A stretch of DNA of 64,000 bases, taken from positions 83,471 to 147,470 of the forward strand of contig JAUYMS010000003.1 in the NCBI GenBank assembly GCA_030698625.1, given 5' to 3'. The notes beneath the pieces were generated by a model. The model made no database searches. It was not told where the DNA came from and was given only the letters and a program-made list of their open reading frames with translations. Position numbers and translations under genes: made by a program. Of this stretch, positions 1,026-44,275 are shown one piece after another. Position 1 is the stretch's first letter. Each line of letters opens with the position of its first letter. The stretch comes from Candidatus Omnitrophota bacterium. Its GTDB lineage: Bacteria; Omnitrophota; Omnitrophia; Omnitrophales; Aquincolibacteriaceae.

Positions 1026-4000
1026 ACCGCCGCCATCTCCGCAGCCCAACCGAACTTATTTTCACTCCAACTGCCCTCAGCCCTCGGAAACGTAGAAGAG
1101 TCGTTTCGCGGACTCAGTACAAAGACAGTCATTCTCATCCAGGACGCACATGATTCTCTCGAAGCCCAAGAACATATTGCGGAACTCGTCGACCACCTGG
1201 TGGCAGAAAAGGGAATAAAAACCGTTTACGAAGAAGGTTATGAGGGAGAGGTCCCAAGCGATGAGCTTTTTGGTTTTATCGAGGACAAGGATCACCGGGA
1301 AAAGGTGTCCTACTTTTTTATGGATCGCCTAAGAATCGGCGGCGCCGAATATGCCCACATCAACCGTAAAAAAGATTTTCGTCTCATCGGTGCCGACAAT
1401 ATTGACCTGCACATCGAAAACGTATCACGGTATCAGGATCTGTCCAAGACAAAGCGGGAGACGGTTGAAGACCTTCGGGCCCTAATCGGGCAGGTGACAT
1501 CTCTGGCGCACAGGTATTTCCCCCAGCCCCTTAAGGAGTGGATGAAACTCAAGGAGCGCTTTGAAGCGGGGAAGTTGGGCCTTACCGACTATCTCAAGCG
1601 GATGATGGCGCTCAGCGACGGAGTCGAGGAATCCGAAAGCATTACGGTCGGGCCTATTATCACGCTTCTTGTGGCCGCCGAAGCCTCGGGCGACGACAAG
1701 CTCCTGGAGCAGATCCGTGATCTCGATCCCAAAGCGGTATACCGTGAAATCGCCGACCTCGAAGACCGGCTGGCCGGCATCTACGTGGAGACGGACCGCG
1801 ATCGTCATATTTTCCGCTTCTACCGGGACCTGACCCTGCTCGGACGCTTGAGCGACATCGCGGTGACTCAGACCGAGTATGGTGCTGTTCAGAAGGCCCT
1901 GGCACGATTTGATACCCAAGGGTTGGCGGAATTTATCACCAAGAATACCGGGAAGTCGGTCGTGCTTTCGCGGCAGTGGGAGCGTAATATCCGCAATGCG
2001 GTGCGCTTCTACGATGTGGCCCATGCCCGGCACAAGGCCCTGCGCCGCCGCCTTGAAGAATTTAAGTCCGATCCCGAAGAGGAGACTGCCGCGCTCGTCT
2101 TCGGAGGTTTCCACACCGAAGATATTCGTGAGATCCTCAAAGAACTGGATATATCCTTCCACGTTGTTTCACCGCGGATCACCGAGATGAGCGAGCGGCA
2201 TCAGAAATATTACAAGCGCTTGATGTCGGCCGGCTATCATGACTTTGAATTAAACGACAAGGTTCGTAGGGCGTCGCGCGCCGTGACTTACTTTGAGCTC
2301 GATGGCAGCGCCGCAATCATCGCGCGTGCTCATGATTATGTGCGGAGTGAATTGCGGGATTTGCCGCGCGAAATTTTGAATACCAATATTGAAAAGCATT
2401 TGGGCGGCGAGGCGGTCTTACAAGCGGGCGTGAAGCCGGAAGCACAGACGGACGCGGATTTGCTTGGTCCGGCGCCGGGCATCGAGAGCGTTGTCGGTTC
2501 TGAGCGCTCCGAACTTAGGCGTCTGGAGTATGGGGGGACAACGCTGTTATTCACCGCAGCGGCCGGAAGTGCGGCCGCAGGTGCGGTCCTCGCATTCCTC
2601 CTGCCGTGGATGGGGCTGAAGGCTTTGGCCGCTGCAATCGGCCTCGGGGCGGCAATCGCCTTTGCGGGCAGCGCCCGCAGCCGTATCGCCCTTGCGTCCA
2701 AAGTTCGGGCAGCCCTCGGGGAAGTCACCGTCATCGGCAAGGGTTCCTACACCAATGTCATGGGACACGAGTCCCTCACCAACAGCCTTAGGCCTGAAAG
2801 CACAAAACTCTCACGCGGTTGGGTAATCCTGCAGAAACGCGGCGCAAAAGCGCTCAAAGACCTTGAGGAATCCGTCAAAGGACCGCAGAACCGCGATGCC
2901 GAGGAAAAGGCTGTCTATCAAGCGCTGTATAAACGGGGATTGGTTCCGAAGACCGTCTATCTTGGGCTCATGCCGATACGCGACATCAAGATCAAACCCA
3001 CCGACAGAAACATGCGCGGCATTTACGACGATGCCGAAGGTCAGTTCCGTAAGGACCGGAAGGACAAGGACAGCCGGCTGCCGGATCACCGCAGCGCCGA
3101 TATTGTTCGCATTGCCATTCAGGAAGAGGGCCTGCCCCTGCATGAATATTTCAAGCTTGTCACCGCGAAAAAAGGCACGGCCATCACAGCGCTCGTAGAG
3201 TTTACCCAAAAGCTTTGGGGTGAGGGGTTCATCGACCTTGACCTGCGCATTGATAACTACATGGTGAAGCTGAAAAATGGAAAGCCCGTCACGGATGCCG
3301 ATGGCAGCCCGGTCATTCTCCTGCATGACTTCGGGGCCGTTTTTAAACTTCCGCGCTCGAGAGAAGGCATCGAGTCCTTTCTGAAAAGCACGATCAATAA
3401 GTCCGACATCTCAGCCGGATTTTTTCTCCTTAGAAATCTGATCCACGTCAACCGCAGCTTTGAGCAAGCCGGCAAAAAAACTATCAAGGTGTACAGCCCC
3501 ATCGCAGACTCCCATGAGAATGCCATTGCGAAGAAGCTTTTCCCCGGCATGAGCCTCAAGGGCATTGCCGAGATGTATGTGCTGGGCCGCAACGAGGCGA
3601 ATCACGTTTCGACGGGCTTAAAGACCTATCTGTTGGAATTCTTTCAGCGCGACGGGCGAGGAGAAGTGATCGAAGGTCATATCGAGGAACTGGCGCGTCG
3701 TATTTTCTTGGCGCTTACAGAAGCAAGCGGCGATCGTGACGACCGCACCCGCTCGGAATTAAGGGCGGCGGATGCGGGGTGGATGGCAGAGCTTGACGAC
3801 GCGTCGGCGCATCAGCTGGCCGTCGACGTGATGCGCCGCCTGGAGCACGTGAGTCCGGAGACGCCTTACGAAGCCAAGTTAGGGGCGGGCAGTGTCTTTA
3901 AAATGGGCGAACAGAATATTGCGGTCGAATACGGCACAGCCAAAACAGGCGGTTGGTTTAGTAAGGACACCGCGGTGATGCGCATTGGCGCGCTGGTTTT

Positions 4001-34000: not shown

Positions 34001-37000
34001 CCAGGTAAGACTCTATAATCAATATCCGGAAGTAAAATATATCATGCATTCGCATGAGTACGTGGAAGGCGCGCCGTTTACCGATGAAGTGTATGCCAGT
34101 GAGGCGCTTCAGGAATTTGACGAGATCGTGAAGGTGGTCGGAAAGGAGCCGGGCGTTAAGAATGTTGCCGTCAATCTGAAAGGGCATGGCAGTGTCGTGC
34201 TTGCCGCCGATCCGGAATATTTGCGCAATACCAAATATGTCTCCCGGACTTTTATCAGCGAGAGGACGGAAATGAACGCTATCCTCGTAGGCGGCCGATT
34301 TGACGGCGAGGGCGGGACGCCGTCGGCACTCATCCAAGAACTTCACGGGGCGTTCCCGCCGGGCGTGACGCTGCACAATGGCGGATCTATCGAAGAGTTG
34401 ACTGCGCTATTCAGCGGGTTGAGCGAGTATGAGGTCATTATGTGGTTCCCCGAGATTCCGCGGGGAGAAGATACCCTTACGTCGAAGATTAAGCTGGTCT
34501 ATCCCTTCAAGAAGCTCATCACGGCGGCCCACAACCGAAGCGGCGACCGCCCGTTCCAGGTGATAATGGACAAGGCGCTCGGCGTGCGGAGCAATTTGGT
34601 TGTCGAATTTTACGACGGCGAGAAGCCGGGCATGCGGCTCTTGGACCCATTATCCAACCAATACGGTGATACTACAGACCCGGCGCTATTTGCCGCTGCC
34701 ATCAGGGAGCGGCTTGAGATCATGAGGAAGTTTACGCGCCAAAGAACGGTTTTGGCGGGTGAAGCCAAAGTGCCGCCGAGGAATGCAGAATTTGAAGAAT
34801 ACCTCGGAATCATCCAGGCGTACGGCGAGAAAGTGCATGAGTTGATTCATCCGGCCGAAGGTGTCAAACGGTTCCTCGGCAATACCTCATTCCGCGCTTC
34901 CTATATGTATCCCGACGCTGGCTACGACGACCTGGTCTACATCTCAAGACGGAACGTCGATAAGCGCAATCTCGATGAAACCGGCTTTATCGCAATCGAG
35001 AAAGACTCGTTTAAAAATAGGCAGATCGGCTACTATGCGGACCGGGATCCCATCACGGGCGAAGAGCAGAAACCGAGCGTAGATACCCCGACCCAGGTGC
35101 GGTTCTTTTCGAAACTGCCGAACGTGAATTTTATCCTGCATTCCCATGTGTATATCGACGGCGCACCGTTTACTGAAGCCCTGTGCCCGTGCGGTTCGCT
35201 CGAAGAAGTCGAAGATGTTCTAAAACTCATCGGTCATGACTACAGCAGGACGAATTTCGCGATCAACCTGCGCGGGCACGGCAGCCTTCTCTTCGCACAA
35301 AGTCTTGATTATCTAAAGGAAGATCACCCGTACACGGCCCGCCCGCTTCCCGAGCTTCTCAATACCGACGGATCCAAGGCGAGAGCCGCTGACTACTTGA
35401 AGAGCCCGTATATTCGCGAAGCCCGTATCGTCGGTGACGGAGAAACCGTTACGGCCGAAATCTTGCCGAACTTCGAAACCCTCGAAGCCTTTGCCCGGGA
35501 GGAAGGGCTCTACACACTGCGTGAAGTCGATCTTCGGAACGATCCCGCAGTTTATCAACTCTTTATGGATATCGCCGGCGGTGTCAACCGGCTGCTCGAT
35601 GAGTCCGAGCATATCCGTAACATTGTCCTTTTAAGTTCTCCGCCGGGCGCGGACAGGCAGCAAATGATCGATACCGCGATAGCCGAAACCGCTCTGGAGG
35701 AGACAACGTCGGCGTACTTCGAGAGCGAAGAATTCGCCCGGGAGATTCTCGCCGTGCCGGGCCGCGAATTGCCGGAAGCCTATGTCAACGTACTGCGCCG
35801 CGATTTTCGTGCCGGCCGGTCGGGGCATTATAAGCGGCTTTTAGGTTTTACGGGTTCCGGCGAAGCCATGTTCGAAAGCATGGAAGAGTATTTCAATAGT
35901 GATGCGGCGGTTAAGATCTATAAAGTTCTGTTTAAAGGGCGCGTGGCGGGCAGAATTGTCGTCAACGAGAGGACTAAGACACTCATTGATGCGATCGTTC
36001 TCGAGCCCTACCGCGGAAACTATCTCGGCGATGCCGTGATCGGGCTGCTCGATCAAAAATACGGCGAATACTCGATCGTGATCCCGACCGGTGTTCCTAT
36101 CTATAATTTTCTCATCAAGCGGGGCTTCAAGGTCCTGCACTCGGAGTCGTTCGGCGCCATTGACCTCGATATCATCAGCCGTACTTCGCATAGCGAAGAG
36201 GATTTGGCGCCGGTAAAGGATGTACACCGTACGATATTCGCGCTTTATGCAAATGCCAAGATGGCTGATTTATCGGCTGCGGCGAAAGACCCGAAAGAGA
36301 GCGGCCTTTACAGGAATTTTCCCGAAGTCTACGATCTGCTCTATCAAAGGTTTTCCAGGCGTTTAGGGGATTACCTGGGCCTTGTTAAGGAGAATACTCC
36401 GGATGGCGGTGCCATCATGGACGCCGCTGCGGGAACGGGCGAGGTATCGGTGCCGCTGCTTCAGGCCGGCTACCGGGTCCTTTCAGCAGACCTTAATGCC
36501 GGAATGCTCGAACAGTTGCAGAAAAAGGCAGGCGAGGGCAGCGTTACGGCAAATACGGCCGTCGCAAGCTTCCATGAATTAGGCGATAGGGAGGACCAAT
36601 TTGATACGGTCAGTGTAAGGCAGGCAATCAATTATCTGGTTGGTGAAAAAGAATTGGTCAGCGGCTTAAAGGCGTTACGCAAGCGGATAAGAAACGGCGG
36701 TAAATTCGTGTTCAACGCGCCGAATTACAATCCCGCGACTTTTACGCCGCCCGAGAGAGGGCCGGATCATATCAAACTGGGAACGATGAATGCGATTGTG
36801 TGGGAGAGCAATGCCATCGATGAAAACGGCATACTAACGCACCATCAGCGCGCTCTCGTGTGGGACGACAACGGCCGTGACGATGTCCGTTACTATCATG
36901 ATAAGAATACGTTTCAGATGTATACGAAGGACGAACTCGACTCCGCTTTGAAAGACGCGGGTTTCTCCGAGATCTCGTATTACTCCGAGCACGGCAAGGC

Positions 37001-37655
37001 CTATGACCCCGACGGCCCTGTCCTCTATGGTGTTGCAACGGCAAGCGAGCGCTCCGAGCTGCGGACAGCGACAACGATTGAGGATTTGGCGGCGCGGAGC
37101 AAGGACCTCTCGGCGTATGAAAAGGTAGCGAAGGCGATGCGTAACCTCAAGCAGGCTGCCACGGTGTTTGTGGACTTCAATGATCTCATCAAGTTCTCGG
37201 ATGAGCAGTTGGAAGAGTTCTTTGTGCTCGGCGCGATGAATCAGCGGGCCGTGAAATTCGTGGTTTACAACTATCACAACCGCGATGTGGACGCCAAACT
37301 CGGTGCCTTTCTCGCGCTGCACAATGTCGAAACACCGCGTATCGATGATGCAACTGCCTTTGAACGTTTCGGGCTCAACGAAAAGCGTACGGCAATTCAT
37401 TTCTCCAAATTTGCGCCGGGTAAGGACCCGAAGAGCCGCTGGAGTACATTCGCGGCTTCTAAGCTCAAGCGCTACTACCGCTACACGACCGAAGAACAGG
37501 GTTTGCTCGGCATTGCCCTGCTTTACGCCAATTTCGCGGAGAACCTGCCGGAACTCGTCGAGGACGAGGGCTACATCATCGGCACAGCTGAGACCATCAG
37601 CGACCTGGTCGAACGCTACCTCGCCGAAGACATTGCCGTCTCCATAGCCGCATAA
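906..37655 (+). CDS. Giant multi-domain protein. It is 12,250 aa counting from TTG 903, but ATG 906 with an AGGA ribosome-binding site 9 nt upstream is the likely start. It has a Sec signal peptide and mosaic enzymatic domains separated by recurrent RSELR motifs.
   Basis: Single uninterrupted reading frame of 36.7 kb in the ORF track. N-terminal positively charged segment plus hydrophobic core and an AYA cleavage-like site. Recognisable domain motifs throughout (see sub-features). RSELR occurs 15 times in frame. Confidence 0.85.
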   Translation: MRKKNFKRGFCIWQKLTAAFVSVCMILLSVVEYVPAAYASTAAISAAQPNLFSLQLPSALGNVEESFRGLSTKTVILIQDAHDSLEAQEHIAELVDHLVAEKGIKTVYEEGYEGEVPSDELFGFIEDKDHREKVSYFFMDRLRIGGAEYAHINRKKDFRLIGADNIDLHIENVSRYQDLSKTKRETVEDLRALIGQVTSLAHRYFPQPLKEWMKLKERFEAGKLGLTDYLKRMMALSDGVEESESITVGPIITLLVAAEASGDDKLLEQIRDLDPKAVYREIADLEDRLAGIYVETDRDRHIFRFYRDLTLLGRLSDIAVTQTEYGAVQKALARFDTQGLAEFITKNTGKSVVLSRQWERNIRNAVRFYDVAHARHKALRRRLEEFKSDPEEETAALVFGGFHTEDIREILKELDISFHVVSPRITEMSERHQKYYKRLMSAGYHDFELNDKVRRASRAVTYFELDGSAAIIARAHDYVRSELRDLPREILNTNIEKHLGGEAVLQAGVKPEAQTDADLLGPAPGIESVVGSERSELRRLEYGGTTLLFTAAAGSAAAGAVLAFLLPWMGLKALAAAIGLGAAIAFAGSARSRIALASKVRAALGEVTVIGKGSYTNVMGHESLTNSLRPESTKLSRGWVILQKRGAKALKDLEESVKGPQNRDAEEKAVYQALYKRGLVPKTVYLGLMPIRDIKIKPTDRNMRGIYDDAEGQFRKDRKDKDSRLPDHRSADIVRIAIQEEGLPLHEYFKLVTAKKGTAITALVEFTQKLWGEGFIDLDLRIDNYMVKLKNGKPVTDADGSPVILLHDFGAVFKLPRSREGIESFLKSTINKSDISAGFFLLRNLIHVNRSFEQAGKKTIKVYSPIADSHENAIAKKLFPGMSLKGIAEMYVLGRNEANHVSTGLKTYLLEFFQRDGRGEVIEGHIEELARRIFLALTEASGDRDDRTRSELRAADAGWMAELDDASAHQLAVDVMRRLEHVSPETPYEAKLGAGSVFKMGEQNIAVEYGTAKTGGWFSKDTAVMRIGALVFVQLQRGSARSLTAQLKKHMINLGDLYQQNRGNIIFMPPADYSRPSAQDPVHMITQIAVAAMLASRESFPGAVVTDLGAGDGLLSQIALRLGAKRVVLVDRKYGQLRKAEKLLRGQGYDQFELLEADLTDTRFIKRILEENLDRESTIALVNIGPHKRLYGDANRIVMERIMRWTGLGLIINAGYYGSGWIFPEAHDEEIKYLEELLPHHGFETTVYEDGMGWRRALTAKRGAQRSELRAEEGKAEFIARMEQIFAGVKQSGKKLGTEEFAERMGYPGRWVTARNRAKRLGYPPATLQQYVETGAGKGRARETKQEFAARLEKIFESVRKSEKREKISRKLFMRLTGYTNKWDALLQRARKAGYAWEAISPYVEADEAPSKIEFLKRLRAIADAVKRHKRRDKISRDFFMRLMGYPENWTALIQRARTSGVTLADISEFVESAEETGVDDRGRIREEQLRDAVTTAKEEFGITGQSMQTLNRARRAEYLNRVAALVGYTNRNNFLHLTEKMGVNLAAFDIHRLERLVPYTLTESRQWLIDNLPKPEDTEGRRKWISTIMHLTGMGMLGRTAAYTLLRAVSSGESGFSELDKPVAEELELDLSTVSSSLLGKEPVSMDRSPNLLDFFVTAANRKLEIERLNPSARSRQITMTPLLDNHLFPYHLEQMLTTQRTSTRAGVLVEEVIGELGSELNAEERTLLRAVVRARAAGTRLRYQTHRTVTAANEILFGTRETLGSTGVYHKVKAAVENSEKLRAAFEALRGDLDLSTDRFDRGFFEWLHTGGYLHDAEIHGITRLMVYDIENVPSPHLLPKLSPENKQAFAVAYFRNHHFQQIAENSAAVLDDPGLPVHTLSAGSLRGWIQGRRPRKIVGGIRRLEAALKPGSPVQEVRESSTEHERETGQILAGGGHNKDLLSFINGLHMRRAKVVAFFNLATRISESVTGPKALELKHAYQTLLLGVLKNPELEVDSTPVHLMLMSTIVNHRHDEAFLRKFFETLLVAAHGMSARVSNREAANMLARTIQGSAVYLAAGPKGPITREGLVHAYQRSAAEKKRYLKVQTVRDDAEFRLMGSLAVPVGLRPDNVYFSKLYNAVIAKVYAPVRVISDEDAAGHKVRNRSPKTLRHVRESQKFDLAKIRSEADEHRRRLRQAERLAYDFWGTQGEPGYWPEEKVKGYIWTHYRRWVREVVWENGRRDMGSHDGVDMEDLMDLARDSVAYVGYTYNAPEEFTLNLDDPGSPEERHAMITGVEALVQEKDATLKEFELMVKDKDKDATELKRAGFGLKKAERAKAYVESVLTLHRHYLEGDAEKAANVYFDLAEQRETIERNIMRSLFTSYLRPSILHYKSRRAVKQAFFELKAISLDQPLPDGDGELMDIAIPVLRSRDEEAVIVDDPRLASFRSIAIKQHFAQVRTSALSDTDRDQYIMRLYYGLEPAYAGVDLTQTDIATIVAFHGGALITDERIRQIIARHDKDIFRRVVHLAQADNLKSWDTFMLQLGVKEPDDAPPPVVIPIEENESKIWLGSHIWIATLGDHAGKYLSFKIIAYDRYNPRSADAGYNNVELQKRIYPYMLEIVVRDPTKPEKGNENLVAVFHVHVIHRPTGSVQQLPIIAVRGKPHYFLRVDSGAHDSTLEPAAEKVDRDQGERPEPTEVPEEPVREAAIEEPVDRFKDWHESAIPHLQRQLKSAQATSLGHPDFEELAPVGEHGRIWVAYQKGNVERKAFFHTGIAGEGQAWVGRRYDLSKSLYVYRIVRVSDTGEAESTRYYRLDLDDHGQPTAMGFREFKYDGSVWEKVSIPGPFWLKQRSELRSASNTDDFDPRLIDTYSRLFVEGLLNTVESEGYPEPYQGAVKEARSRLNAVDMPSLADVLQPVEAALKIPVTLDGLSGAADETKVYELARLQYKVRALNKFRVPIREFIKNLMERAEFAARIQSSTEGPVRMGLIHFEEEGHKSGQYSNGLADIVIDWMSTWDASVNAIVFRNIRFDYFFNIVGLANALQSKFFPDAPDPDALVVLLRESLRNAVVWGNKSRPDNLAAIRWRFEGEELVIDVIDRNREEIDFTKKPEPPRGVKPIYYSPRTDPASGGYPGDIKPFIDPAFLTGDRYDFPILDKSGRRLGQVLHLRYPYPQRSELRDEDDEEVLGYVADHADFDTTGFITSRFSGGSNVVGLGDLHTNLAVKAQTIDLIRSGEITHLVMELNGEDLNKALKNRESLREAIRRHFEILVINDEDIESFVDVILAAQTAGVELVFPDPRKTSRPDDPGQETVDMEAALAIGSIVRSDQDAKVLVLFGAEHTRRGLRWPRKEGRSRLTLGENLKTEEGVRYYSVYLESPDRRDTSDYTLVRGDKYRQQGFALTNMASFPRQMLDRAADTDFFRPEEIDAYVQLPLLSYEDYRTLVAAGEDLPKFVLPEFTEDLAVKSSVGENEPERRRAIREKAARLVALLRTQPDADWPIEEMVEEFNGFRLDVSEYAPEIGVIYLWLSPTDSFTISVPTYFAVPSQGIVVHAPEFSDDRYEDEIIQLPIEIAKLLNGNEIEKDSSGIFSPAGSDIYWKEWRQRHAYQYYRTLVGPIGAGAVQAILARESGRKWRVVDFFAGDGSFLRYLSKHLATVQPDTDVDYAMVEKFSELIDQAPRTLAGTAVEIHQADIRHLQDVKAIIGKKPVIVTAFGGLNSGVVKQDDAEAIAKRIYAALPAGSYLVLGGYSAMMVNAKELAAMGFEVLNTGLPHYMVTEDREAPNQLYILRKPYPWYRGGLWRSELRSAFDYDAYRKRQEAGLEVILEEIDALRTDGRWEKMPLSARLQLIGERADVVPLDWGAWLELLEKTGMWFGPEREKMEDPTDQVEATMTGDYQILQAPSMRQPQQGETYSRYLTSYGACDCLVLTLYHPGTKVGMIDHLYLERKKNPAERIAGALKTMHEEYGIDPREVRAEISGGQMDLSNFKAIQILEALETHEVPIYFFQALDFPLVMLDGYYPYAEGDGHVALDLETGRHYRLHDIIPPAQKRRHRSELRKGKPIEDYLKELENEKAVFGPDNAGEFSESHRYVDGILKKLILTAGFDPAEYSLYLVDDPEPKAWIQGRYPAVFISLGLLRFFGRHRLSQDALAHLLAHEVLHLRQHKEDEHYSGPSSWSEYYAEYYANEYDADVRALRLMAEAGFSIQDAESTFEKLREGMGKNDYSPLGSYPQMRTRSDRIKQIRDYGRWPDSARAAPQAMPQEVLREAMRFSLRRQKWHRANRINQVKELSELIETADALNDLTFILWSGLGRLKKRRVLKSAKVPHAVESALVTRLAALPIWPEYLSADTRDLAAKLLGKFLAATVYGKFMERTVLIDHELLNEKALLDELSEIFHSAKNAKDVLDLISAAIFVTMPQRIALGRETAGDAQKSYAAYQNRWHAEPRRGGDTVGWVYTWEQFLGRALLEEVPYVPIAGRQVRWGPFIRVVGWIQGAVRFVLGRFVSIDWIQVRDPLAGWTAADLGRVYEAGAGRTWGGYHIGPMRHSNVVGIDHWLFQAAINHPELVKAMDTDTFRRFVKDATKIAVAKGPGHSDDPETQEAKMRNMIYEAASLDAAKREVIQNLLGNDYDVFGFFRTGIESFPDTWIFGENAPGTGYAYAEKRMDDLIRQLHARRGSISGMVLHHSEVLHASDRLAESAKLTQTEHLRLMAHLAKTEWYSADMMWHSLLGWESGRVQWIPSFLGQADDELNAFIDLDLRARLGDGVWESLPVTGRFIFYAYLNDIYQLPADWEAWDREVQSWSTEQIRLLHRVVAQSTNRPVFDTDARLDREAIDRRPPLPYRRSREELLLRLSVLGLLKEQGVSLKKYLPPVELGRSAPSGAFGFADQLADLPRGRKEDNPRVRRAMDHLFHMFRLEKGRSPWINRTDIEKNGEQGMTAILGYVFAETGETPADMADRIAHWLPATAYRNWVLYLIFMHHYLGRTLGVKIDRKRLGDTSYMAEVWASVSDNQRESARHFIREKIAPLMVQDARLEGLNLARVFDHFIHEKLHEVDEAAYEKALPGFQDVRYFVPGTVLTQLDLMMGGVFSPGISEQIADAASDPQDILEQISTAYPRASAERDRLLVELADHARADSGVLKDIMPLLDGPWYKQEIGVRALRSIRASQSTTSVDDSLKLIENWLPSATPIRDGLLHEVIQEEVGTLPELNAVEEKLFALQPNEQRRLRGNQAVALMGLEFFQAIFGYGTPMASKLDLLDWFFFEGGKPDILRRYEFHFRISFEGFIEESGDLAKNEPEVAREVRKRLLAFVLDGDQGILSDDDATDELFNRLLARWLPENTEFDIVIRTVLESLIGLSDRLRKREILMHLLAGPDDLSALGNDPELRQAKVAKLILEANGLVGIKVGQVLANSALVTDMPVPMRTELANLQDRADPMDRAVSLRILDQIHNGKLHDHYPRIGRVLGSASTSVVYDAWHRSGRHVALKLLRPTARNRTVGDLAMLKLIPADVIERLNAKNIAIPEWLENYLGLLVGRVERLVMPELFYTVEAQSMDRFRVRQLARGSALRIPEVVENPGDDLIAMELIEDAVPVSDEAGINTRGRQMGDVRRDIAQEMIVEVHEGEYHGDPHPRNFLVDKDGRLWMIDLGAVYEVSPKSAAFLISLVAALHMGADIRPILADLLTANADPAALESAISEAARVETIPEKIAQIFLTLDQQALLPEDLALTQRLFLQGGHIFEGLSLWDLMQIGEQLKDGPQRSELGSETPVVREGLRPDLTPFIGIGVHRKDHLSYGNSAAIEGAEKLTDFLRDRDLLHEIQLTVETEAQSQIGREIASKLDRVPDATMRLIVDGAFMQKCCSEAVLGIFDHLEAKPGRFAELHLPLDLILYWDDRQMRDSPPEEKEEYIAMQVLPNLERRGFGYKAYGVNHQILAERDPPKGGETRLVVKLWHSAKEMENWADSLAAKPLRSELRALEPVMPVKKVLVMTGEYSYMPFDKEREWERYVVDYLRKAGVEAEFVYANGAGGTLRRFEEEFDEIGLVIATDDVLRGVRERERLIGRNPVPYILMKTTYLRMDEPELEELGNAVYVHSGLGTLDELKEIIPEIVGNAEGAVYEPFWTGEGIEAKPAREGVEHPAVELLEELRQDLTNPTFLKKIYRDTTDYDAEPLTARFTLIPGYSLPAFPMTPASFRDDVHRRIIKEVYSILPHVIEFPVEATGRAPVVIGADSDEGIARWAKTMRVGSRFDQWISDKMPLVHIEQSLNRIMTEIDGKERANKALRRSVYRKLGWRVHDLEIKSEAAGDEAGQTIFNVMGTWLLANPEAVTRAWVAEDEDGAAAGMLVLKRTIANETFGEHREMVNSAIAIASDAATRGKGIAPRMIRESFEAMRQRGIRYYFADIDYRNKPSFRTFIKTAAAAGATVTHFPEMTTSREEERPFLIDLFSDQPAPRDLPEALPSDPDEAWAYVLAQGLMQEPSDEYSWTPPAADGDRAVREYRVKDVTEEIEADEDAGTWIDFQELYDDKVHAKLRDITEYPDPAGHEAMMRGFEVQPDGSFDTVKLEDGAYSAIVRIADRAAVQDTQQAFRKFVDAIAKVFPADVRDQVRVWETGEDNPHIGTAVFQVPEVLLGGKQPRLQPRHIEPLQELVREMTQDEETIPLTFLGYGIGADGGFVRLYSDPAGRFMKLRNALLLKGHKVSQMYASGRGTNIIAMTGGRILHLPYSADAAIAARQKDRVLEIVRDRAQAFQSQWEQNLAEPQILDVDGLTWVLEDKWLTERNEQGVEDVFFPFGGRSELRSLSEDLLAELAAEYAVSRLTSGRNSAEEQELMLKTMRSDVHKAILWRYKGLEFELRERIEEVVFEAVQAAVRTYDGVRLSYLDYFYATAQEAILHFFAKSVPAAKRPYLLSEPLEAYLRFLSLENRRPELDEFLGLTVNDMKNEDYLVLQRETDAANYEDSISVPVRAAAPENQLPKPVQIANAGMVRLAKAFGIQAADITAAMIHSVPNTEWAVLSLFFGIDGELIQDPEQIARRLTELGYRDANNEALRGEKVSDYVVRGLNRLQNRETGRTRLADALGKKPTEITPDLLQALTSREEALIRYKFGIGKSRLMTHLEIAEKLTKEGFSFNDGVHVTKTLYRILQKLKTAQTGWQLLAADLGKPEEEARRDFEKNAAKMTQLETLAVTHYYGLGVNRIKDKTRLAKHLSDLTHETIRRNRLYRLLARGLAVLRGEKKRVRVKSAYQPPIISEIPEEVGVTGDELLQVMRAAAGDQSLAEALVPVRDAWYALHPLGREILIINFGLGVTAAKSLPEISKRLKESPYWVEKSDPAKTTLTRHRRLALADLKQRVSGLNRLAEDTGVSEEYLPGIISQGLALEQKRVLKMTFGLDTERIVPDKLIVDIFRDAWSEEINAMRVRTVRRDALQRIREFAVNAGYADESVLTKRKKDMSKRTPRPPKWTRERVDQLIAESADEKLRATILHRQGLGGLVNAASGFYGSWQKALEAHHRDITKINIRKTPQRSELRADSPELSDSRDAEYKKRLTDILEQRALIMELRELEPASDEMVAVILERLGEYAASAKASLVDVEDFKFVLRLVTNPAWRTGKFSEKMKALTHLWGYVVFTAVREHRMNPQLRSSVDHLITDMLGAEFENRAPLRRILINTEVGSPYHEKPLHGEEQMLGSDFVYLIKSLAKNLNLSGRLAERNDRLVGPILRAFEGRYDFTLTEAERGKILQLMEGNDLLAIFVSAMDNGLTRPPSREMTLEDIRKIRGKFREVVADSIGSYPVSARDRILVRILQKQPELGRELMAEAQAAVSYSRKPIDFEAAGASTVKRRKGVNVADTEGFGDFAVKHPDLHAVLTSRESLLTLMQTAALVRDFFPYTLTAPDKLQTPVQFAIEYGMYLPLGHGYYLTPISGSFKRHLLFTMDDKNRPVMTVPIKIPGKIPGRRPALNGDLDRYRDAREVFGDDMEIAGAMGTVEPAGLESVMLYGEEREVTEKDHLRVLVLEGPEAGWRVEYLRHKDLQRISDHYPKYHGDASLVADDIARSILRGVAQWHALNYLGKGPGEGSGTDLHTGNWELLTPPLNGDPEQGISVRNIIDLASLHQYVEDRAAFDGQRMWDLKTVIDARDVLTGPGVTFSLLALHLKENEHDFLEDPHDLFEKYTAIYSEEYEAVKQIAKRPPPMSYREIYTTILGETHEAPLIITGLTGAGKTILAENYEKYLREGEVEVPAHLVHSDGFLRYSVMALLIRLLITLGWIKVDALTKEGFIQRHYFDLEKRDRFVDEVKAGKYEGKQLVIEGIFSDILFAQALNAKTLLIEANSASVYEERYVDRSMKDKKRLKLPAQFLARTLISNRLNQQLLDSRENHDLVLNLDDIFKPKLTVNRPPKKAELRRSGLLKVIVDALTAPAGIRERLTADGVKFGSVPEPYVSTFDLEGLPWVFTQYRNEDKDSPLLSLDELKEQALTLTGTLEVKFDGGARNAGVFLGYVQEVPHPVVIKYFQAGVSDMDAYDRALELYMAQIVAFSGVGPEFYGVLVEDGEIVGYAMQAAPGAFATQTSDLLYLMRYLYQSGDADNKAVQQNVMRIEETMARYAMVPVDGHLNVLLSRTGHISLIDAGNVRPASELAEFRMPSWMSSEEKVKQLFQLMQAYLQKRRPLITRRGAIHTLLDHTQAEHAAPLVSVTTREMMKDGLHESLVKYVRQGGHLVLTTPAFKEEAFLSAIDGIHRNFAETGEIELLGRIHFIASDNNLKDIFVYESDAGGYRLLPDDPMEPDPLLKLVRYLNTAGRKVLPLMSYDYESASVPRRAYFDTAHRVFSQTPHAGKYVAIWDIEEITERLAERAPEELEKGRKELPAQQDFMEWTFESTPFEVPAGNQVKVIVGEKGRGAPGFVWAGVNDWEKTYLIPLVQNPATGRHEAVLPAGTTAFTFYWRDSPKAAGERWEGRDFHVRSAERSELRAAAVNITETVLPNAGLKGMASQDAKVLIAELDGDFLLESKTWPERNARTFTAAERKIFETGEGLTPFSEFDLTHDDVASVTHSIYDRTSGIIGIRAAVEDKAGTVRYIRFSGAGTNEMEKLKTLMPPISEMTAEGTVLRVSAGNQGDLAGNFTVHSRKERGWEFFGANDEPWRGARYKAFVQLENGKRMLGEVELVGEAKDNRIKQVFITPVGGRERVELDAMQTRSVIVAYTLGWGETPADELLRKNYAMSSDIRHLLAFPFFRGGPQFYNQTVLTRERYKAAMNFRPLDFDIVDMTGNAIPVAELLGQLDKYGYVAKDTADEVVKPGDYFIADENNIRLIFHPAVYPVNILVTSQDGEKAAFVSIQGVSGNLGANYWNVFEWIQEQLPWAFAAFALDNGKDPSWQSYNEDGTEAELLVTGRDLVNATVLVTKRDGFQRSELRLPARTAEEMMTRREFIPRAALAVAAGLVVLYESPNIVLAADEEKGEVTLFLLSHGTVEDFETVKPHVEAVIKRLLDAGKTVHYFVEAADLEAELSLTSLIYAALAPDQSADLREVFGNLYTEPLPEAFLETSFEQDQLFVPLLQGVERGLQYMKDHNEIPADRIADYELVLKLLPVLRKIKEKFRGIVRGTASPDSDDVTREVAIERLTKLFDEFYDATDHSYEPDGLAKAPFAHRLHYALNRDKDGKPWGFWGAQEMYLREGTFAPELGTRLLVHRERLLTPGQLDAYTTASVQYSKLFEALGFPGNPKSVIEIEGKFPEAVFYATQGTAEERLALVRKAYYEAGARFESAVMGGRDRALSQEAVRLTPEDKDASVITRGLAHVAAGRLLADNAATDVRDMKQIQGRAQPAVDAPNTEAELREMRGGNPGDAIKLKVGQHMVVGLISDLVREVHKDHLKAYRERYENLAAGIPDTLQGEDREKEIEKQMNQAPYFRAMDPAPLPKRLERFFVEDRRSIWNAMADHPEQVEEFLLQAFRIHAAYQRVVAATLRKKKETEPEEDPVEMAGRIYATYLAMLKLRSASIPTPLEAEELPFKLITKAVADGVYEGDVKTFLDTFEAEAEKVMDFKPSLLRRERYRSELRDDEPVKEIPLYMAYARHLNAADTFDFAKPFFDEAIQKTSRKDGRPNGIMIIEHVDSNLAAMFMNAMHRVVDPVQFPDSVVGAWFRQQLTIPKQWTPYEKMESFLVQYRQDQPFRTEVDNQYQAFLKHIGVERIYGIYDLKQRIGPASVLQHAELDYFIEKGIGQAALEPARFETAATAYLFGELDKEIRQALTQRRYDDAANLHLKSIDLLEDSGKVRDRIMNQFVGELIREDPERAIYHFRGFNHERNHDLLTGDGQKAAGVLVGSRLGQRPVFSTTTFQAMDGAEKNLLLIHFMNEVLDHLLHEEKLSSHRSIQEFLAFHLSLTQGLEREFKSLEQPEDYDAWFREIFDAANETVQRKSLSLGLALLEVLEERNILSRSELRTEGGDKEKPRGQITRRTFLDWMVKAANAAAAASGVSPGALLEAAVSIPAEKPDLSLAALARRFAHNPDSLKELEQGVAWLQAFTILYGTDKKEEDYELGLINLKLAVLDGVRTRKESEGVTALSEEEAASRLETALNSLESIAQSEGLKKAPHLLERLRSLMAEPFSFKAALSARTALIRHAWGTVLGPRSELSRVAKDVAEWYGRDLRAAQAVMAEIAEQLTPEGFRKIRQRELIFERNMDNYFDRSLLPEIARGEAEIDWSNLLEDDYRARMSRFKDLAGQLPAAVRKQVFANPKVREAERSYRQWQRESWKRKEERETSADPESLKMIIVGGRFDDEGGRPSSLVNQIHAALPAGTKRVNGGRFDAIPGLAKTLADYDVIIWFPDIPNDKAKYRNLKARYPDKLLVTSKRNHEGSYSDLEVVDHALKLKSNLVIEFSDTIPFNMRLLDPLGNVYEDTQDASSLAKSMTRRLKVIAKVRRQGTKRVAVASPVKVPDEPEFFDIIRDQAARFHEIMSERRPETEENEEFCFRCERGFPSMREGDFAFVSKRGAANTERHFTRKDMVPVDLASFRETGEINFYGPNKPAVDTPVQVRLYNQYPEVKYIMHSHEYVEGAPFTDEVYASEALQEFDEIVKVVGKEPGVKNVAVNLKGHGSVVLAADPEYLRNTKYVSRTFISERTEMNAILVGGRFDGEGGTPSALIQELHGAFPPGVTLHNGGSIEELTALFSGLSEYEVIMWFPEIPRGEDTLTSKIKLVYPFKKLITAAHNRSGDRPFQVIMDKALGVRSNLVVEFYDGEKPGMRLLDPLSNQYGDTTDPALFAAAIRERLEIMRKFTRQRTVLAGEAKVPPRNAEFEEYLGIIQAYGEKVHELIHPAEGVKRFLGNTSFRASYMYPDAGYDDLVYISRRNVDKRNLDETGFIAIEKDSFKNRQIGYYADRDPITGEEQKPSVDTPTQVRFFSKLPNVNFILHSHVYIDGAPFTEALCPCGSLEEVEDVLKLIGHDYSRTNFAINLRGHGSLLFAQSLDYLKEDHPYTARPLPELLNTDGSKARAADYLKSPYIREARIVGDGETVTAEILPNFETLEAFAREEGLYTLREVDLRNDPAVYQLFMDIAGGVNRLLDESEHIRNIVLLSSPPGADRQQMIDTAIAETALEETTSAYFESEEFAREILAVPGRELPEAYVNVLRRDFRAGRSGHYKRLLGFTGSGEAMFESMEEYFNSDAAVKIYKVLFKGRVAGRIVVNERTKTLIDAIVLEPYRGNYLGDAVIGLLDQKYGEYSIVIPTGVPIYNFLIKRGFKVLHSESFGAIDLDIISRTSHSEEDLAPVKDVHRTIFALYANAKMADLSAAAKDPKESGLYRNFPEVYDLLYQRFSRRLGDYLGLVKENTPDGGAIMDAAAGTGEVSVPLLQAGYRVLSADLNAGMLEQLQKKAGEGSVTANTAVASFHELGDREDQFDTVSVRQAINYLVGEKELVSGLKALRKRIRNGGKFVFNAPNYNPATFTPPERGPDHIKLGTMNAIVWESNAIDENGILTHHQRALVWDDNGRDDVRYYHDKNTFQMYTKDELDSALKDAGFSEISYYSEHGKAYDPDGPVLYGVATASERSELRTATTIEDLAARSKDLSAYEKVAKAMRNLKQAATVFVDFNDLIKFSDEQLEEFFVLGAMNQRAVKFVVYNYHNRDVDAKLGAFLALHNVETPRIDDATAFERFGLNEKRTAIHFSKFAPGKDPKSRWSTFAASKLKRYYRYTTEEQGLLGIALLYANFAENLPELVEDEGYIIGTAETISDLVERYLAEDIAVSIAA
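2520..2700 (+). other. Two predicted transmembrane helices (GGTTLLFTAAAGSAAAGAVLAFLLPWMGLKALAAAIGLGAAIAFAGSA) immediately after the first RSELR.
   Basis: About 50-residue Ala/Gly/Leu-rich hydrophobic stretch flanked by charged residues. Begins 5 residues after RSELR at 2505-2519. Confidence 0.5.
3050..3420 (+). other. Protein-kinase-like fold domain 1 (catalytic-loop-like DLDLRIDNYMV and DFG motif ILLHDFGAV).
   Basis: Order and spacing of D-x-x-x-x-N and DFG motifs typical of ePK-like, RIO, Kdo or LPS kinases. Motif-level only. Confidence 0.35.
4140..4560 (+). other. Class I SAM-dependent methyltransferase-like domain 1 (motif I VTDLGAGDGLLS, followed by an acidic motif II VVLVD).
   Basis: Gly-rich DxGxGxG nucleotide-binding motif, then a hydrophobic strand ending in an acidic residue about 20 aa later. 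Rossmann-like periodicity. Confidence 0.55.
4722..5330 (+). repeat. Three tandem ~68-aa protein repeats (consensus …EF..RL..I…VK…KR.KIS…FMRL.GYP..W.AL.QRAR..G…..IS.YVE).
   Basis: Read from the translation: repeats start near 4722, 4941 and 5141. They are conserved at the amino-acid level but diverged at the DNA level. Confidence 0.6.
11640..12240 (+). other. Class I SAM-methyltransferase-like domain 2 (motif I RVVDFFAGDGSFL).
   Basis: DxxxGxG motif with hydrophobic beta-strand context and a downstream LVLGGY strand. Confidence 0.4.
13250..13620 (+). other. Zincin-like metalloprotease motif region (LAHLLAHEVLHLRQH; HEVLH at 13344-13358), M48/SprT-like context.
   Basis: HExxH embedded in a hydrophobic helix. 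A downstream Glu/His-rich segment (KEDEHYSG…EYYAEYYANEYDAD) could supply a third ligand. Confidence 0.45.
17090..17940 (+). other. ABC1/UbiB-family atypical protein kinase domain.
   Basis: N-terminal ABC1 signature GQVLANSALVTDMPVPMRTELANLQDRADPMD (compare GQxLSxRxDLLP…LxxLQDxVPP). Nucleotide-binding segment IGRVLGSASTSVVYDAWHRSGRHVALKLLRP. Catalytic HGDPHPRNFLVDKDGRLWMIDLGAV (compare HADPHPGN…IDFG). Confidence 0.75.
19900..20160 (+). other. GNAT-type N-acetyltransferase-like domain (motif A IAIASDAATRGKGIAPRMIRESFEAMRQRGIRYYFADI).
   Basis: R/Q-x-x-G-x-G/A acetyl-CoA-binding-like motif followed by a helix and a beta-strand with an aromatic residue. Motif-level only. Confidence 0.4.
22170..23190 (+). 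repeat. Array of at least four sigma-70 region-4-like (LuxR/ECF-like) helix-turn-helix repeats.
   Basis: Repeats LTSREEALIRYKFGIGKSRLMTHLEIAEKL…TKTLYRILQKL; LETLAVTHYYGLGVNRIKDKTRLAKHLSDLTHETIRRNRLYRLLARGL; LHPLGREILIINFGLGVTAAKSLPEISKRL…TLTRHRRLALADLKQRV; LEQKRVLKMTFGLDTERIVPDKLIVDIF…AMRVRTVRRDALQRIREF. All fit the pattern L..RE..VL.LRFGL……TLEEIG……VTRERIRQIE.KALRKL. Confidence 0.45.
25480..25900 (+). other. P-loop NTPase, uridine-kinase or PRK-like (Walker A LIITGLTGAGKTIL at about 25534-25557).
   Basis: GxxGxGK[ST] preceded by a hydrophobic strand. A downstream acidic or hydrophobic Walker-B-like strand (QLVIEGIFSD). Confidence 0.5.
26380..26800 (+). other. Protein-kinase-like fold domain 3 (VVIKYF beta3-Lys-like, DGHLNVLL catalytic-like, ISLIDAGN DFG-like).
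   Basis: Motif order and spacing as in APH, choline-kinase or ePK-like folds. Motif-level only. Confidence 0.35.
29157..29255 (+). other. Internal twin-arginine (Tat)-like signal peptide MMTRREFIPRAALAVAAGLVVLYESPNIVLAA|DEE, located 8 residues after an RSELR site.
   Basis: T-R-R-E-F-I matches the S/T-R-R-x-F-L Tat consensus. It is followed by a hydrophobic h-region and an A-x-A (LAA) signal-peptidase-like site. The position is internal (aa ~9419). Confidence 0.5.
33207..34271 (+). repeat. Duplicated module, copy 1 (~355 aa): a Rossmann-like domain (MIIVGGRFDDEGGRPS…) plus a class II aldolase/adducin-like domain (…YIMHSHEYVEGAPFT…NLKGHGSVVLAA).
   Basis: Clear collinear amino-acid similarity to copy 2 over the full length. 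HSH and GHG metal-ligand-like motifs at positions typical for class II aldolase or epimerase folds. Confidence 0.55.
34272..35325 (+). repeat. Duplicated module, copy 2 (MNAILVGGRFDGEGGTPS… / …FILHSHVYIDGAPFT…NLRGHGSLLFAQ).
   Basis: Same architecture and motif order as copy 1. DNA diverged, so this is an ancient tandem duplication. Confidence 0.55.
36380..37030 (+). other. Class I SAM-methyltransferase-like domain 3 (motif I AIMDAAAGTGEVS; motif II RVLSADLN; post-I FDTVSV; motif III GGKFVFNAPN).
   Basis: All four canonical class I methyltransferase motifs in the correct order and spacing. Confidence 0.65.
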
Positions 37656-38100: not shown

Positions 38101-38655
38101 TTACGGGCGTTTGGGGTCGATCTGGACGGTGTAGTTGGGGTTGGGGTCGAGAAGCTCATTCATGTTGAGCTTCATGCCTTCGCGGCTGTAAGCCGCAAGA
38201 TTCAGGATGTGAGTATCCATCCGAATGGCATCTTCAGGACAGGCCTCCACACAGAATCCGCAAAAGACACATAGCCCAAGATCAATATCAAAACTCTTGG
38301 GGCGCTTCTCGATCGTAGGATCGGGATGCTCTTCTGCCACAATATAAATACACTTTGCCGGACAAACGGTCTCACACATCATACAGGCGACACATCGCGC
38401 CGAACCGTCTTCGCGTTTTGTGAGCCGGTGGCGGGTACGCGAGCGGGGAGCGAGCGGGCGTTTGTGTTCGGGGTACATAATCGTTACGGCGGCCCGAACG
38501 GCTTTGAAAAGCCCGAAGCGGTGCATGGTGTGAAAAAAGAGATTGCGCCAGAAATGGCCCCCGGTAATACACACCCCGCGGATGATTTCCGGGATGTAGA
38601 TCTGCTGCCAGAATGTCATCTTCGGGCGTTTAATGATTTTTGTCGTAATAGCCAT
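38101..38655 (-). CDS. nuoI: NADH-quinone oxidoreductase subunit I (2x[4Fe-4S] ferredoxin-type).
   Basis: Two CxxCxxCxxxCP motifs (CVACMMCETVCPAKCI, CVFCGFCVEACPEDAI). Collinear with NuoI/NQO9. Confidence 0.85.
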   Translation of the reverse strand: MAITTKIIKRPKMTFWQQIYIPEIIRGVCITGGHFWRNLFFHTMHRFGLFKAVRAAVTIMYPEHKRPLAPRSRTRHRLTKREDGSARCVACMMCETVCPAKCIYIVAEEHPDPTIEKRPKSFDIDLGLCVFCGFCVEACPEDAIRMDTHILNLAAYSREGMKLNMNELLDPNPNYTVQIDPKRP

Positions 38656-38670
38656 AATTACCTTTTGTGC

Positions 38671-43465: not shown

Positions 43466-43468
43466 TGC

Positions 43469-43774
43469 TTATCCTTTTAAGTGGCGAATGTCATTGGTAT
43501 CCACGGAGTCCATTTTTCGGAAAAGCAGTACTGCGATGGCAAGTCCGATCGTTACCTCTGCGGCGGCAATAACCATCACAAAGAAGGCCGTCAACTGGCC
43601 GTTGATTTCCCCGTGTAAGGCCGAGCCCGCAATAAAGTTCAAATTTGCGGCATTCAGCATGAGCTCGATAGACAATAAGATAAGGAGAATATTGCGGCGT
43701 ATCATTAAGCCGAATAGGCCGATCGTAAAAAGGATGCCGCTTACGATGAGATAATGGCTGAGCGGGATTGTCAT
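43469..43774 (-). CDS. nuoK: NADH-quinone oxidoreductase subunit K.
   Basis: 101-aa, 3-TM protein with a conserved NuoK sequence (…LSIELMLNAANLNFIA…). Confidence 0.85.
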   Translation of the reverse strand: MTIPLSHYLIVSGILFTIGLFGLMIRRNILLILLSIELMLNAANLNFIAGSALHGEINGQLTAFFVMVIAAAEVTIGLAIAVLLFRKMDSVDTNDIRHLKG

Positions 43775-44271
43775 GCCTCACCCTTTTCTTTTTTTGCGAG
43801 TGCAACCGCAGCAAAGACACTGACAAGGAGTAAGAAAGACGTCAATTCAAAGGGCAAAATATAATCCGTAAAAAGGAGCTTGCCCACGGCTTCAACGGTT
43901 CCGGAAACCTCGCGGGCGGGAGGGGATATCAGACCCGAGATAATATAGGTCATTCCCGCCAGCAGAACCATCGCCGCAATGGGGGCAAAGAATAAAAAAA
44001 GAGGATGAAACCGTTGAAGCACGCTGCTGTCTTTTGCTCCGATGCCTTGCAGCATGATCACAAAGAGAAATAAAACCAAAACAGCTCCCGCATAGACGAT
44101 CAGGTTGGCCATGGCAACGAAATGGGCGCCGAGAAGCACGTAAAGGACCGAAAGTGAAAACATGGTGAGCACAAGTGACAGAAGGGCGCGCGTAGGCTCG
44201 GGGAGCAGGATGACGAACAGGGCTGTAAGAATGGCGAGACCGGAAAAACTATAAAAGAGGACTACGCCCAT
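43771..44271 (-). CDS. nuoJ: NADH-quinone oxidoreductase subunit J. The ORF track extends to 44367, but the internal Met at 44271 avoids overlap with atpC.
   Basis: 5-TM NuoJ-like protein. An upstream in-frame extension would overlap the atpC coding region. Confidence 0.75.
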   Translation of the reverse strand: MGVVLFYSFSGLAILTALFVILLPEPTRALLSLVLTMFSLSVLYVLLGAHFVAMANLIVYAGAVLVLFLFVIMLQGIGAKDSSVLQRFHPLFLFFAPIAAMVLLAGMTYIISGLISPPAREVSGTVEAVGKLLFTDYILPFELTSFLLLVSVFAAVALAKKEKGEA

Positions 44272-44275
44272 AAAG

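Follow-up and report, generated by a model that had tools for sequence, protein, structure and literature searches.

To our knowledge, the longest predicted proteins are encoded by Omnitrophota. Multi-enzyme giant proteins of this phylum have a signal peptide and transmembrane segments and are tiled with unrelated Pfam families of enzymes, such as methyltransferases, kinases, NUDIX and GNAT (West-Roberts et al. 2023, bioRxiv 10.1101/2023.11.21.568195; 2026 preprint, bioRxiv 10.64898/2026.06.07.730766; Seymour et al. 2023, PMC10066038). Their proteolytic cleavage has been proposed, but the cleavage points were stated to be unknown, which according to the main study blocked further analysis (bioRxiv 10.1101/2023.11.21.568195), and topology predictions modelled them as intact multi-pass membrane proteins (bioRxiv 10.64898/2026.06.07.730766). 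Such proteins may act as a single chain or as cut pieces. Here we describe a giant open reading frame (ORF) in 64,000 nucleotides (nt) of DNA from a Candidatus Omnitrophota bacterium (contig JAUYMS010000003.1, positions 83,471 to 147,470; this whole stretch is called the window, and all positions refer to it). The ORF occupies positions 906-37655 of the + strand as one uninterrupted reading frame of 12,249 amino acids (aa) counted from ATG 906 (listed ORF start TTG 903, stop codon 37653-37655), and is punctuated by 16 copies of the pentapeptide RSELR. This sequence appears to be the present genome's version of a family motif, R[SA]E[LVIM]R, which is, with high confidence, a junction motif acting at the level of the peptide. 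With moderate confidence we read it as a cleavage site for an endoprotease, and the ORF as a bacterial polyprotein, a reading in which we infer the cut, the scissile bond and the protease. The motif would be the first concrete candidate for the positions at which Omnitrophota giants are cut.

The ORF belongs to the published class of multi-enzyme Omnitrophota giants, with which it shares the phylum, the signal peptide, the transmembrane segments and the tiling of unrelated enzyme families. The papers on this class describe no punctuation motif, no conserved head or tail and no cleavage points. Neither the definition of a head-cassette-tail architecture nor its punctuation by R[SA]E[LVIM]R was found in the searchable literature; queries with RSEVR, RSEIR and RSEMR gave no relevant paper, and unrelated software names were among the matches listed for RSELR.

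Two kinds of well-known protein resemble this arrangement in the way they work. MARTX toxins combine conserved N- and C-terminal regions with variable, shuffled effector cassettes, and the linkers are cut at a short signature by a protease of the same chain; this is an inositol-hexakisphosphate-activated cysteine protease cutting after Leu, and the toxins have glycine-rich repeats and type I secretion. The ORF likewise has conserved ends flanking shuffled cassettes, a resemblance in possible working and not in membership. It differs in having a signal peptide at the N-terminus and a five-residue motif, and a Pfam scan of the ORF detected no MARTX-type cysteine protease, glycine-rich repeat or type I secretion domains. 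The polyproteins of flaviviruses and picornaviruses are encoded by one ORF that comprises many unrelated proteins with a repeated short protease recognition sequence between them, and those of flaviviruses have internal signal peptides behind junctions. In contrast, the ORF described here is a gene of a cellular chromosome, codes for 12,249 aa and has no detected viral-type protease; its processing is putative.

RSELR occurs 16 times in the giant ORF, as compared to 0.035 copies expected from amino-acid composition, which rules out chance, and is the sole 5-mer present more than three times; one-mismatch variants are limited to three (RSELG, RSELS and RSILR). Searches of the ORF for tandem repeats and for internal protein paralogy (E<1e-3) found none. 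Hence the motif neither belongs to a repeated domain nor descends from a recent DNA copy, in agreement with the preliminary description, which had held the repeats not to be recent DNA copies. That description had placed the repeat within 2505-37064; 15 copies lie there, and the sixteenth is located upstream at 2343-2357.

All copies lie on the + strand. Site 1 (2343-2357, CGG AGT GAA TTG CGG) marks the end of the head domain and coincides, in alignments, with the R[SA]E[LVIM]R of other heads, and site 2 (2505-2519, CGC TCC GAA CTT AGG) is followed 8 aa on by a hydrophobic segment. Sites 3 (3750-3764, CGC TCG GAA TTA AGG) and 4 (4701-4715, CGC TCT GAG TTA AGA) bound a module whose homologue in L077 also ends at the motif. 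They are followed by site 5 (9417-9431, CGG AGT GAA TTG AGA), site 6 (10392-10406, CGA TCC GAG TTA CGG), site 7 (12276-12290, CGC TCG GAG TTA AGG), site 8 (13035-13049, CGG TCT GAG CTC AGA), site 9 (18795-18809, AGG TCG GAG CTG AGG) and site 10 (21273-21287, CGT TCG GAG CTG CGG). Site 11 (23463-23477, CGT TCG GAA CTG CGG) closes a module whose homologue in L043 also ends at its motif. Further downstream are site 12 (27786-27800, CGC TCG GAA CTA CGG), site 13 (29118-29132, CGG TCA GAG TTA AGG), site 14 (31053-31067, CGC TCC GAG CTG CGG) and site 15 (32205-32219, CGT TCC GAG CTC AGG), and site 16 (37050-37064, CGC TCC GAG CTG CGG) stands at the start of the tail module. The RSELG variant at 18165-18179 (+ strand, CGC TCC GAG CTC GGA) lies in the linker-like context PQRSELGSETP and is probably a decayed or variant seventeenth site, its GGA codon being one base away from AGA or CGA.

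The placement of the motif at module junctions, proposed from the window DNA, is borne out by alignment breakpoints, by the composition of the flanks and by the model of the tail. Alignments of modules with their relatives begin or end exactly at the motif, on both sides, in module 3 (L077), module 10 (L043) and the tail (P0001 and L006), and among 165 high-scoring segment pairs between family members outside the head, 35-40% of the ends fall no more than 30 aa from a motif, as compared to 9% expected. In the 12 residues on each side, Pro, Ser, Thr, Ala, Gly, Gln and Glu are overrepresented. In the AlphaFold2 (AF2) model of the tail, RSELR of site 16 lies in the only stretch with a predicted local distance difference test score (pLDDT) below 50-57, around 50 at the site, which fits a linker. 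Spacing between sites has a median of 332 aa, close to the length of an average bacterial protein; roughly 15% of the spacings are short polar spacers of up to 60 aa, and these include tandem or overlapping copies such as RSELRSEVRSELR. Doublets exactly 20 aa apart recur (5 cases) with polar low-complexity sequence between them; overlapping or doublet copies were seen in L069 (aa 3598-3610), P0060 (aa 1436/1456, 2736/2756 and 3367/3387), L042 (aa 1500/1520) and L015 (aa 965/985). With the exception of some copies inside the tail fold, the motif is thus a repeated short sequence at the junctions of unrelated, protein-sized units in apparently accessible linkers.

Conservation in relatives points to the peptide. 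R[SA]E[LVIM]R was found at 276 sites in 77 related ORFs, i.e., at 1.22 per 1000 aa against 0.007 expected (175-fold). In the ORFs flanking these loci its frequency is 0.1 per 1000 aa, and nearly all of those copies lie in adjacent large same-strand ORFs that resemble further family members. At homologous sites the peptide is kept while up to 7 of the 15 nucleotides differ, so that the earlier suggestion of maintenance at the amino-acid level holds for the family as well. RAE[LV]R replaces the RSE form in some lineages, and P0060 mixes both. Which hydrophobic residue is used depends on the genome (chi-square p=2e-14): Leu occupies this position at 16 of 16 sites in the window and at 26 of 26 in three paralogous ORFs of genome CAYSSX, and in most other genomes Val, Met, Ile and Leu occur side by side.

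Signal peptides behind the motif constitute a further line of evidence. Among the first hydrophobic segments of clusters, 21 of 111 start no more than 40 aa past a motif (5.8% expected; 3.3-fold, p=1.7e-6), and many of these segments resemble complete Sec or twin-arginine translocation (Tat) signal peptides with AxA-type ends. Site 13 of the window is followed by a sequence of the Tat type (RSELR-LPARTAEEMM-TRREFIPRAALAVAAGLVVL..VLAAD); the predicted signal peptide (MMTRREFIPRAALAVAAGLVVL..VLAAD) spans 29160-29246 on the + strand, and its twin-arginine motif begins 11 aa past the site. Signal-peptide-like sequences likewise follow the motif in L039 (RSEIR-SAS-RREFLAGTAAAGLLG..AHAQD) and L028 (RSEMR-GFNSSLRKSILYVLAAGGLLISSTVGFAADS). 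Sec and Tat signal peptides normally act at or near a free N-terminus. Internal translation starts behind the motif were considered and rejected, as Met, Val and Leu are not enriched at +1 to +12.

The arrangement at site 13 recurs in a relative. An exhaustive HMMER search covering 1.84 billion proteins with module 13 (29118-31052) gave three relatives only (P0059, P0060 and P0061), which puts module 13 in a small family of three clusters, and the P0060 homologue shares the succession of motif and Tat signal (RSEVR, 15 aa, then SRRDFLKLAGAG). In P0060 (aa 2756-3052) and in the partial P0059, which has the variant RNELR, the module opens with a twin-arginine signal just past the motif; in P0061, which is without the motif, a twin-arginine-like segment lies some 80 aa from the N-terminus. 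Module 13 was also considered as a paralogue of the head, which was rejected (hhalign probability 0.8%). Elsewhere in the window protein, a second twin-arginine-like segment (TRRTFLDWMVKAANAAAAASG, 32259-32330, + strand) is located 13 aa past site 15, and two adjacent hydrophobic segments (aa 547-587, 2544-2666, + strand) lie directly behind site 2.

By its predicted architecture, the giant ORF belongs to an unnamed, Omnitrophota-specific family with a signal peptide and conserved head, variable enzyme cassettes and a conserved tail. The predicted N-terminal signal peptide or membrane anchor (MRKKNFKRGF..LTAAFVSVCMILLSVV..PAAYA/ST; 906-1025, + strand) has a hydrophobic segment at aa 16-34 and a modelled helix at aa 8-27; its K/R-rich start and AYA site were read from the N-terminus of the window protein, and the same feature is present in the family consensus. 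The head domain, of about 430 aa (approximately aa 50-479; 1053-2342, + strand), is supported by homologues and by an AF2 model. It has 58 homologues in the database, all of them labelled Omnitrophota or Omnitrophica wherever the source gives a name. In GTDB representative genomes it is encoded at 181 loci, often with several paralogues per genome; in the best 80 of the 181, every record title that names a phylum gives Omnitrophota, except for one labelled Planctomycetales. L001 (18784-21366) and three further loci each have a second head-domain gene immediately downstream of the first; family members can therefore stand in tandem. The window head is 29-47% identical to its relatives in a 48-protein alignment, the best locus (L001) reaching 49%. 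No neighbour gene is conserved across the family loci, the best cluster being present at 8 of 77, for which reason a conserved neighbouring protease or transporter gene was rejected; the constant elements are the head, the tail and the motif only.

Conserved motifs of the head are QDAHDSLEAQ, EEGYEG, GGAEYAH and GGFH. The invariant residues, which include D80, H82, S84, E110, E148 and H403, are all present in the window protein, and H151 and R154 are at least 90% conserved. The invariant His and Glu residues of QDAHDS, EEGYEG and GGFH presumably resemble the paired His motifs of the Tiki-type superfamily, and the six invariant residues named, taken with H151, would fit its paired His/Glu signature. 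A Pfam search with the window head gave no match, with no hidden Markov model match at threshold, and PDB sequence searches with the single sequence and with a profile found nothing significant. The AF2 model of the head (pLDDT 87.4, predicted template modelling score 0.80) gave weak but coherent top Foldseek matches in the PDB (E 0.008-0.1), namely to the erythromycin esterase EreC, the esterase-like BcR135, the haem-binding ChaN and HopBA1; TM-scores to these structures are low, and the head has a large helical insertion. One relative (L005) showed a faint match (E=0.1) to PF04187, which Pfam places in the Tiki superfamily. The model thus suggests that the head is possibly a hydrolase of the erythromycin-esterase/ChaN/TraB-GumN/Tiki type, as a lead and not an assignment; no profile match to a family of this superfamily is significant.

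The tail module (about 196 aa; 37065-37652, + strand) has homologues in the C-terminal modules of other members of the family, and 19 of these were aligned with it. Its AF2 model (pLDDT 80.5) has an alpha/beta fold, for which a search against the PDB gave generic Rossmann-like matches, none of them significant. The window tail ends in ..VSIAA-COOH, and 21 of 23 complete relatives terminate in AA or SA; the common ending is ..[hydrophobic]x[AS]A-COOH behind a conserved C-terminal helix (window 37605-37652, L001, L006, L014, L018, L030, L042, L061 and others). We take the terminal Ala-Ala to resemble C-terminal recognition tags such as the ssrA tag. A word-indexed protein search returned nothing for the tail and nothing for module 13. 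A metagenome scan for close relatives gave a single one, with 39% identity, and hence no close orthologue to compare site by site.

If the motif is a processing site, RSELR and its variants in the flexible linkers between head, cassettes and tail would be recognized by an endoprotease. Cutting at or next to the motif, this enzyme would break the chain up into individual proteins, and some of the released pieces would have a Sec or Tat signal peptide of their own immediately behind the site. Since selection acts on the peptide, the synonymous codons have diverged. Candidates for the protease would be the head domain, the M48-like module of the ORF or an unlinked enzyme. Endoproteolytic processing is the best-supported reading, given signal peptides of the free-N-terminus type, spacing at protein size, a linker context, redundant copies in tandem and a hydrophobic residue that is specific to the genome. 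A more far-reaching version, which we regard as possible but rather improbable, would make these ORFs true polyproteins, that is, equivalents of operons translated as one chain. These would be cut by a protease, possibly the Tiki/TraB-like head itself with a pocket that co-evolves with the hydrophobic residue of the genome, the pieces would be routed singly, some of them via their own Sec or Tat signal peptides, and the minor codon of the last Arg would possibly time the cut co-translationally.

Several points weigh against processing. Cleavage is a prediction from sequence. The head is predicted to be exported and most cassettes look cytoplasmic, so that protease and sites may sit on opposite sides of the membrane. 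The matches on which the assignment of the head to a hydrolase superfamily is based are all weak, and no protease gene is kept adjoining these ORFs at the 77 loci. The motif is scarce or absent in about a dozen family members. Internal hydrophobic segments could serve as signal anchors in an uncut chain. The choice among synonymous codons in the motif is far from random, which selection on the peptide alone does not explain. Finally, the motif of some tails lies within a predicted beta strand (RSELRLVIYN) or, 17-22 aa before the C-terminus, in the last helix; a cut at these places would divide a folded domain, hence not every copy can be a simple linker site. Exact in-tail copies of RSE[LVI]R fall at alignment columns of about 130-143 and 285-300 in the tails of P0001, P0009, P0017, P0029, L006, L030 and L061, and other tails, including that of the window (RAVKFVVYN), have merely motif-like sequence at these positions.

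The in-tail copies, which occupy homologous positions in several members, would be accommodated by an uncleaved short linear motif, i.e., a docking site for a binding partner (for instance a chaperone, translocon, targeting factor or modifying enzyme, or the head or tail domain), repeated along an intact giant membrane-associated protein. Tandem and overlapping copies would then provide avidity, the genome-specific hydrophobic residue would suit any co-evolving binding partner as well as it suits a protease, and the giants are regarded as intact membrane proteins with multiple passes in published topology predictions (bioRxiv 10.64898/2026.06.07.730766). Complete Sec and Tat signals of the N-terminal type right behind the motif, however, make most sense with a new free N-terminus, and protein-sized spacing and unrelated enzymes of the cytoplasmic type fit separate products better than one folded assembly. 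Modification of the Ser is a poor candidate for such a function: phosphorylation or another modification of this residue was rejected, since Ala replaces Ser in whole lineages, and the interchange likewise argues against glycosylation. Docking is a possible but rather doubtful alternative to endoproteolytic processing.

If confirmed, processing at R[SA]E[LVIM]R would represent a cellular polyprotein strategy at a scale known only from viruses. The motif provides an explicit, testable map of candidate cut sites at protein-sized intervals, divides giant ORFs into units suited to structure prediction and annotation, allows the family to be defined by head, tail and motif, and points to specific protease candidates. 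Should the cut follow Arg, tryptic digests would not reveal it, which calls for caution in proteomics.

The preliminary description had further proposed that the motif is encoded by a local cluster of rare codons that could slow ribosomes at module junctions and aid co-translational folding or processing; on this reading, the preceding module would gain time to fold or be processed. Conserved rare-codon clusters at domain boundaries tune co-translational folding, and the ORF is comparable in having non-preferred codons (TTA, AGA, AGG and CGG) at the junction, with a bias at the last Arg that is partly kept in relatives. It differs in that one or two codons only are concerned, the adjoining motif codons are common, the flanks are normal and the TTA excess is unreplicated. 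The three codon strings given as examples, those starting at 2505, 9417 and 18795, are correct, and so is the use of all six Arg codons and of both TCN and AGT for Ser; Leu is encoded by six codons, not five. The first Arg is CGC at 7 of the 16 sites, CGG at 4, CGT at 3, and CGA and AGG at 1 each; Ser is TCG (6), TCC (5), TCT (2), AGT (2) or TCA (1), Glu is GAG (10) or GAA (6), Leu is TTA (5), CTG (5), TTG (2), CTC (2), CTT (1) or CTA (1), and the last Arg is CGG (7), AGG (6) or AGA (3). The counts of five TTA codons and nine AGA or AGG (AGR) codons at the last Arg had been given correctly.

As a background, the moderately GC-rich giant ORF itself (GC 55.8%, GC at third codon positions (GC3) 64.5%) was used together with 11 neighbouring window genes, which served as an approximation of the genome-wide codon usage. 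TTA accounts for 4.6% of Leu codons in the ORF and 6.2% in the neighbouring genes, AGA and AGG together for 18.1% and 16.5% of Arg codons, respectively; these codons are thus rare, as the proposal requires, and are enriched at the motif (TTA, 5 of 16 vs 4.6%, p=6e-4; AGR at the last Arg, 9 of 16 vs 18%, p=7e-4). Moreover, the last Arg is AGA, AGG or CGG, never CGU, CGC or CGA, at 16 of 16 sites against a background of 45% (p about 5e-6, for a grouping chosen post hoc). These three are the Arg codons that the inosine tRNA-Arg does not read. The CGG share of Arg codons is 14% in the housekeeping genes of the window vs 27% in the giant ORF.

The enrichment is confined to codons 4 and 5 of the motif. 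In the 15 codons on each side, TTA makes up 3 of 48 Leu codons and AGR 2 of 38 Arg codons; there is no cluster of slow codons, as the flanking codons are ordinary, and a regional rare-codon or low-GC3 patch around the sites was rejected on the same ground. In relatives, tested at 260 independent sites of which 78 are Leu sites, TTA is not enriched (4 observed vs 8.0 expected), so the rare-codon claim holds for TTA in the window only. AGR at the last Arg is not enriched over all sites (65 vs 63.7) but is so at sites of the RSELR type, i.e., with Leu (31 vs 18.9, p=0.002), and AGR and CGG taken together are in mild excess (154 vs 127.9, p=6e-4); NGG also exceeds expectation there (123 vs 95.0). 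The largest effects run opposite to the claim, because the first Arg and the Ser, which favour common codons, are biased to CGY (203 vs 106.5, z=12) and TCC (123 vs 56.7, z=10), with AGY depleted at Ser (19 vs 81.6). Part of this bias is generic: at invariant Ser and Arg residues of the head, TCN and CGC are likewise preferred and AGR is avoided. The last Arg of the motif differs from these residues, the other invariant Arg residues of the head being depleted in AGR and CGG codons.

The codons for Glu, the hydrophobic residue and Arg are slightly more complementary to the anti-Shine-Dalgarno sequence than their synonymous recodings, both in the window (-3.87 vs -2.63 kcal/mol, p=4e-4) and in relatives (p=1e-3), which would be in line with a pause. 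Structure of the mRNA at or after the sites was rejected as a contributor, being the same as at random positions. The effects in relatives are small, and a pause needs no strictly conserved five-residue peptide and leaves the genome-specific hydrophobic residue unexplained. There is a modest, conserved preference for minor Arg codons at the last position, and the codon skew is a secondary, partly lineage-specific feature; a translational pause as the function of the motif is improbable and would at most be an add-on to a function of the peptide.

At 6 of the 16 sites (3, 4, 5, 7, 9 and 13) the Leu-Arg codon pair (TTA AGR, CTG AGG or TTG AGA) creates a stop in the +1 frame, and the first +1-frame stop is nearer to a site than to random positions (median 21 vs 57 nt, p=0.006). 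Site 2 contains, at 2514-2520, CTT AGG C, which we take to be the same heptamer as the +1 frameshift site of yeast Ty1. Both the stops and the heptamer are probably a by-product of the codon bias.

That the peptide is the by-product of a 15-nt nucleic-acid element (CGY TCC GAR NTG MGG), either a recombination junction from cassette shuffling or an RNA processing site, is very improbable: the strong synonymous biases given above and the shuffling of cassettes between members with breakpoints at the motif would agree with it, but at the window sites Arg and Leu are each encoded by all six of their codons and Ser by codons of both families, the peptide persists at homologous sites despite the nucleotide differences, replacements are conservative as amino acids (L/V/I/M, S/A), part of the bias (TCN, CGC) is shared by invariant Ser and Arg residues in the head that are unrelated to the motif, and outside the 15 nt there is neither conserved nucleotide context nor RNA structure.

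The segments between the sites contain unrelated enzyme domains according to Pfam, comprising class I methyltransferases, an M48-like zinc peptidase, an ABC1 kinase, a GNAT domain, a class II aldolase and P-loop-like stretches. On the + strand, a class I methyltransferase-like stretch in module 3 (4218-4397) matched Methyltransf_25 with an E-value of 1.7e-5, just under the gathering score. The M48-like stretch (13140-13367; Peptidase_M48, 22.1 bits vs a cut-off of 20.3) is a protease candidate inside the ORF; its HExxH-type motif HEVLH (aa 4147-4151, 13344-13358) lies about 100 aa past site 8. Other peptidase-type Pfam families in relatives are M23 in P0004, CPBP in P0022 and a transglutaminase-like family in P0028. 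Further downstream follow an ABC1 atypical kinase domain (17172-17891, E 4e-25), a GNAT acetyltransferase domain (19860-20123; Acetyltransf_1, 22.8 bits vs a cut-off of 20.7), a class II aldolase-like domain (34863-35147, E 8e-10) and a class I S-adenosylmethionine-dependent methyltransferase domain (36414-36701; Methyltransf_25, E 4e-11).

Directly upstream of the giant ORF, a small ORF (218-703, + strand) with a signal-peptide-like start and an SseB N-terminal domain (E 8e-17) was found, which is not kept beside the giant ORFs of relatives. The other neighbours are ordinary chromosomal genes. Those at 38101-48427 on the - strand and 53949-62887 on the + strand code for a 4Fe-4S protein, three proton-antiporter-type membrane subunits (complex I or Mrp-like), the alpha and beta subunits of an F-type ATP synthase, NusA (nusA), IF-2 (infB) and PNPase (pnp), and a tRNA-Gly(TCC) gene is located at 52673-52743 on the - strand.

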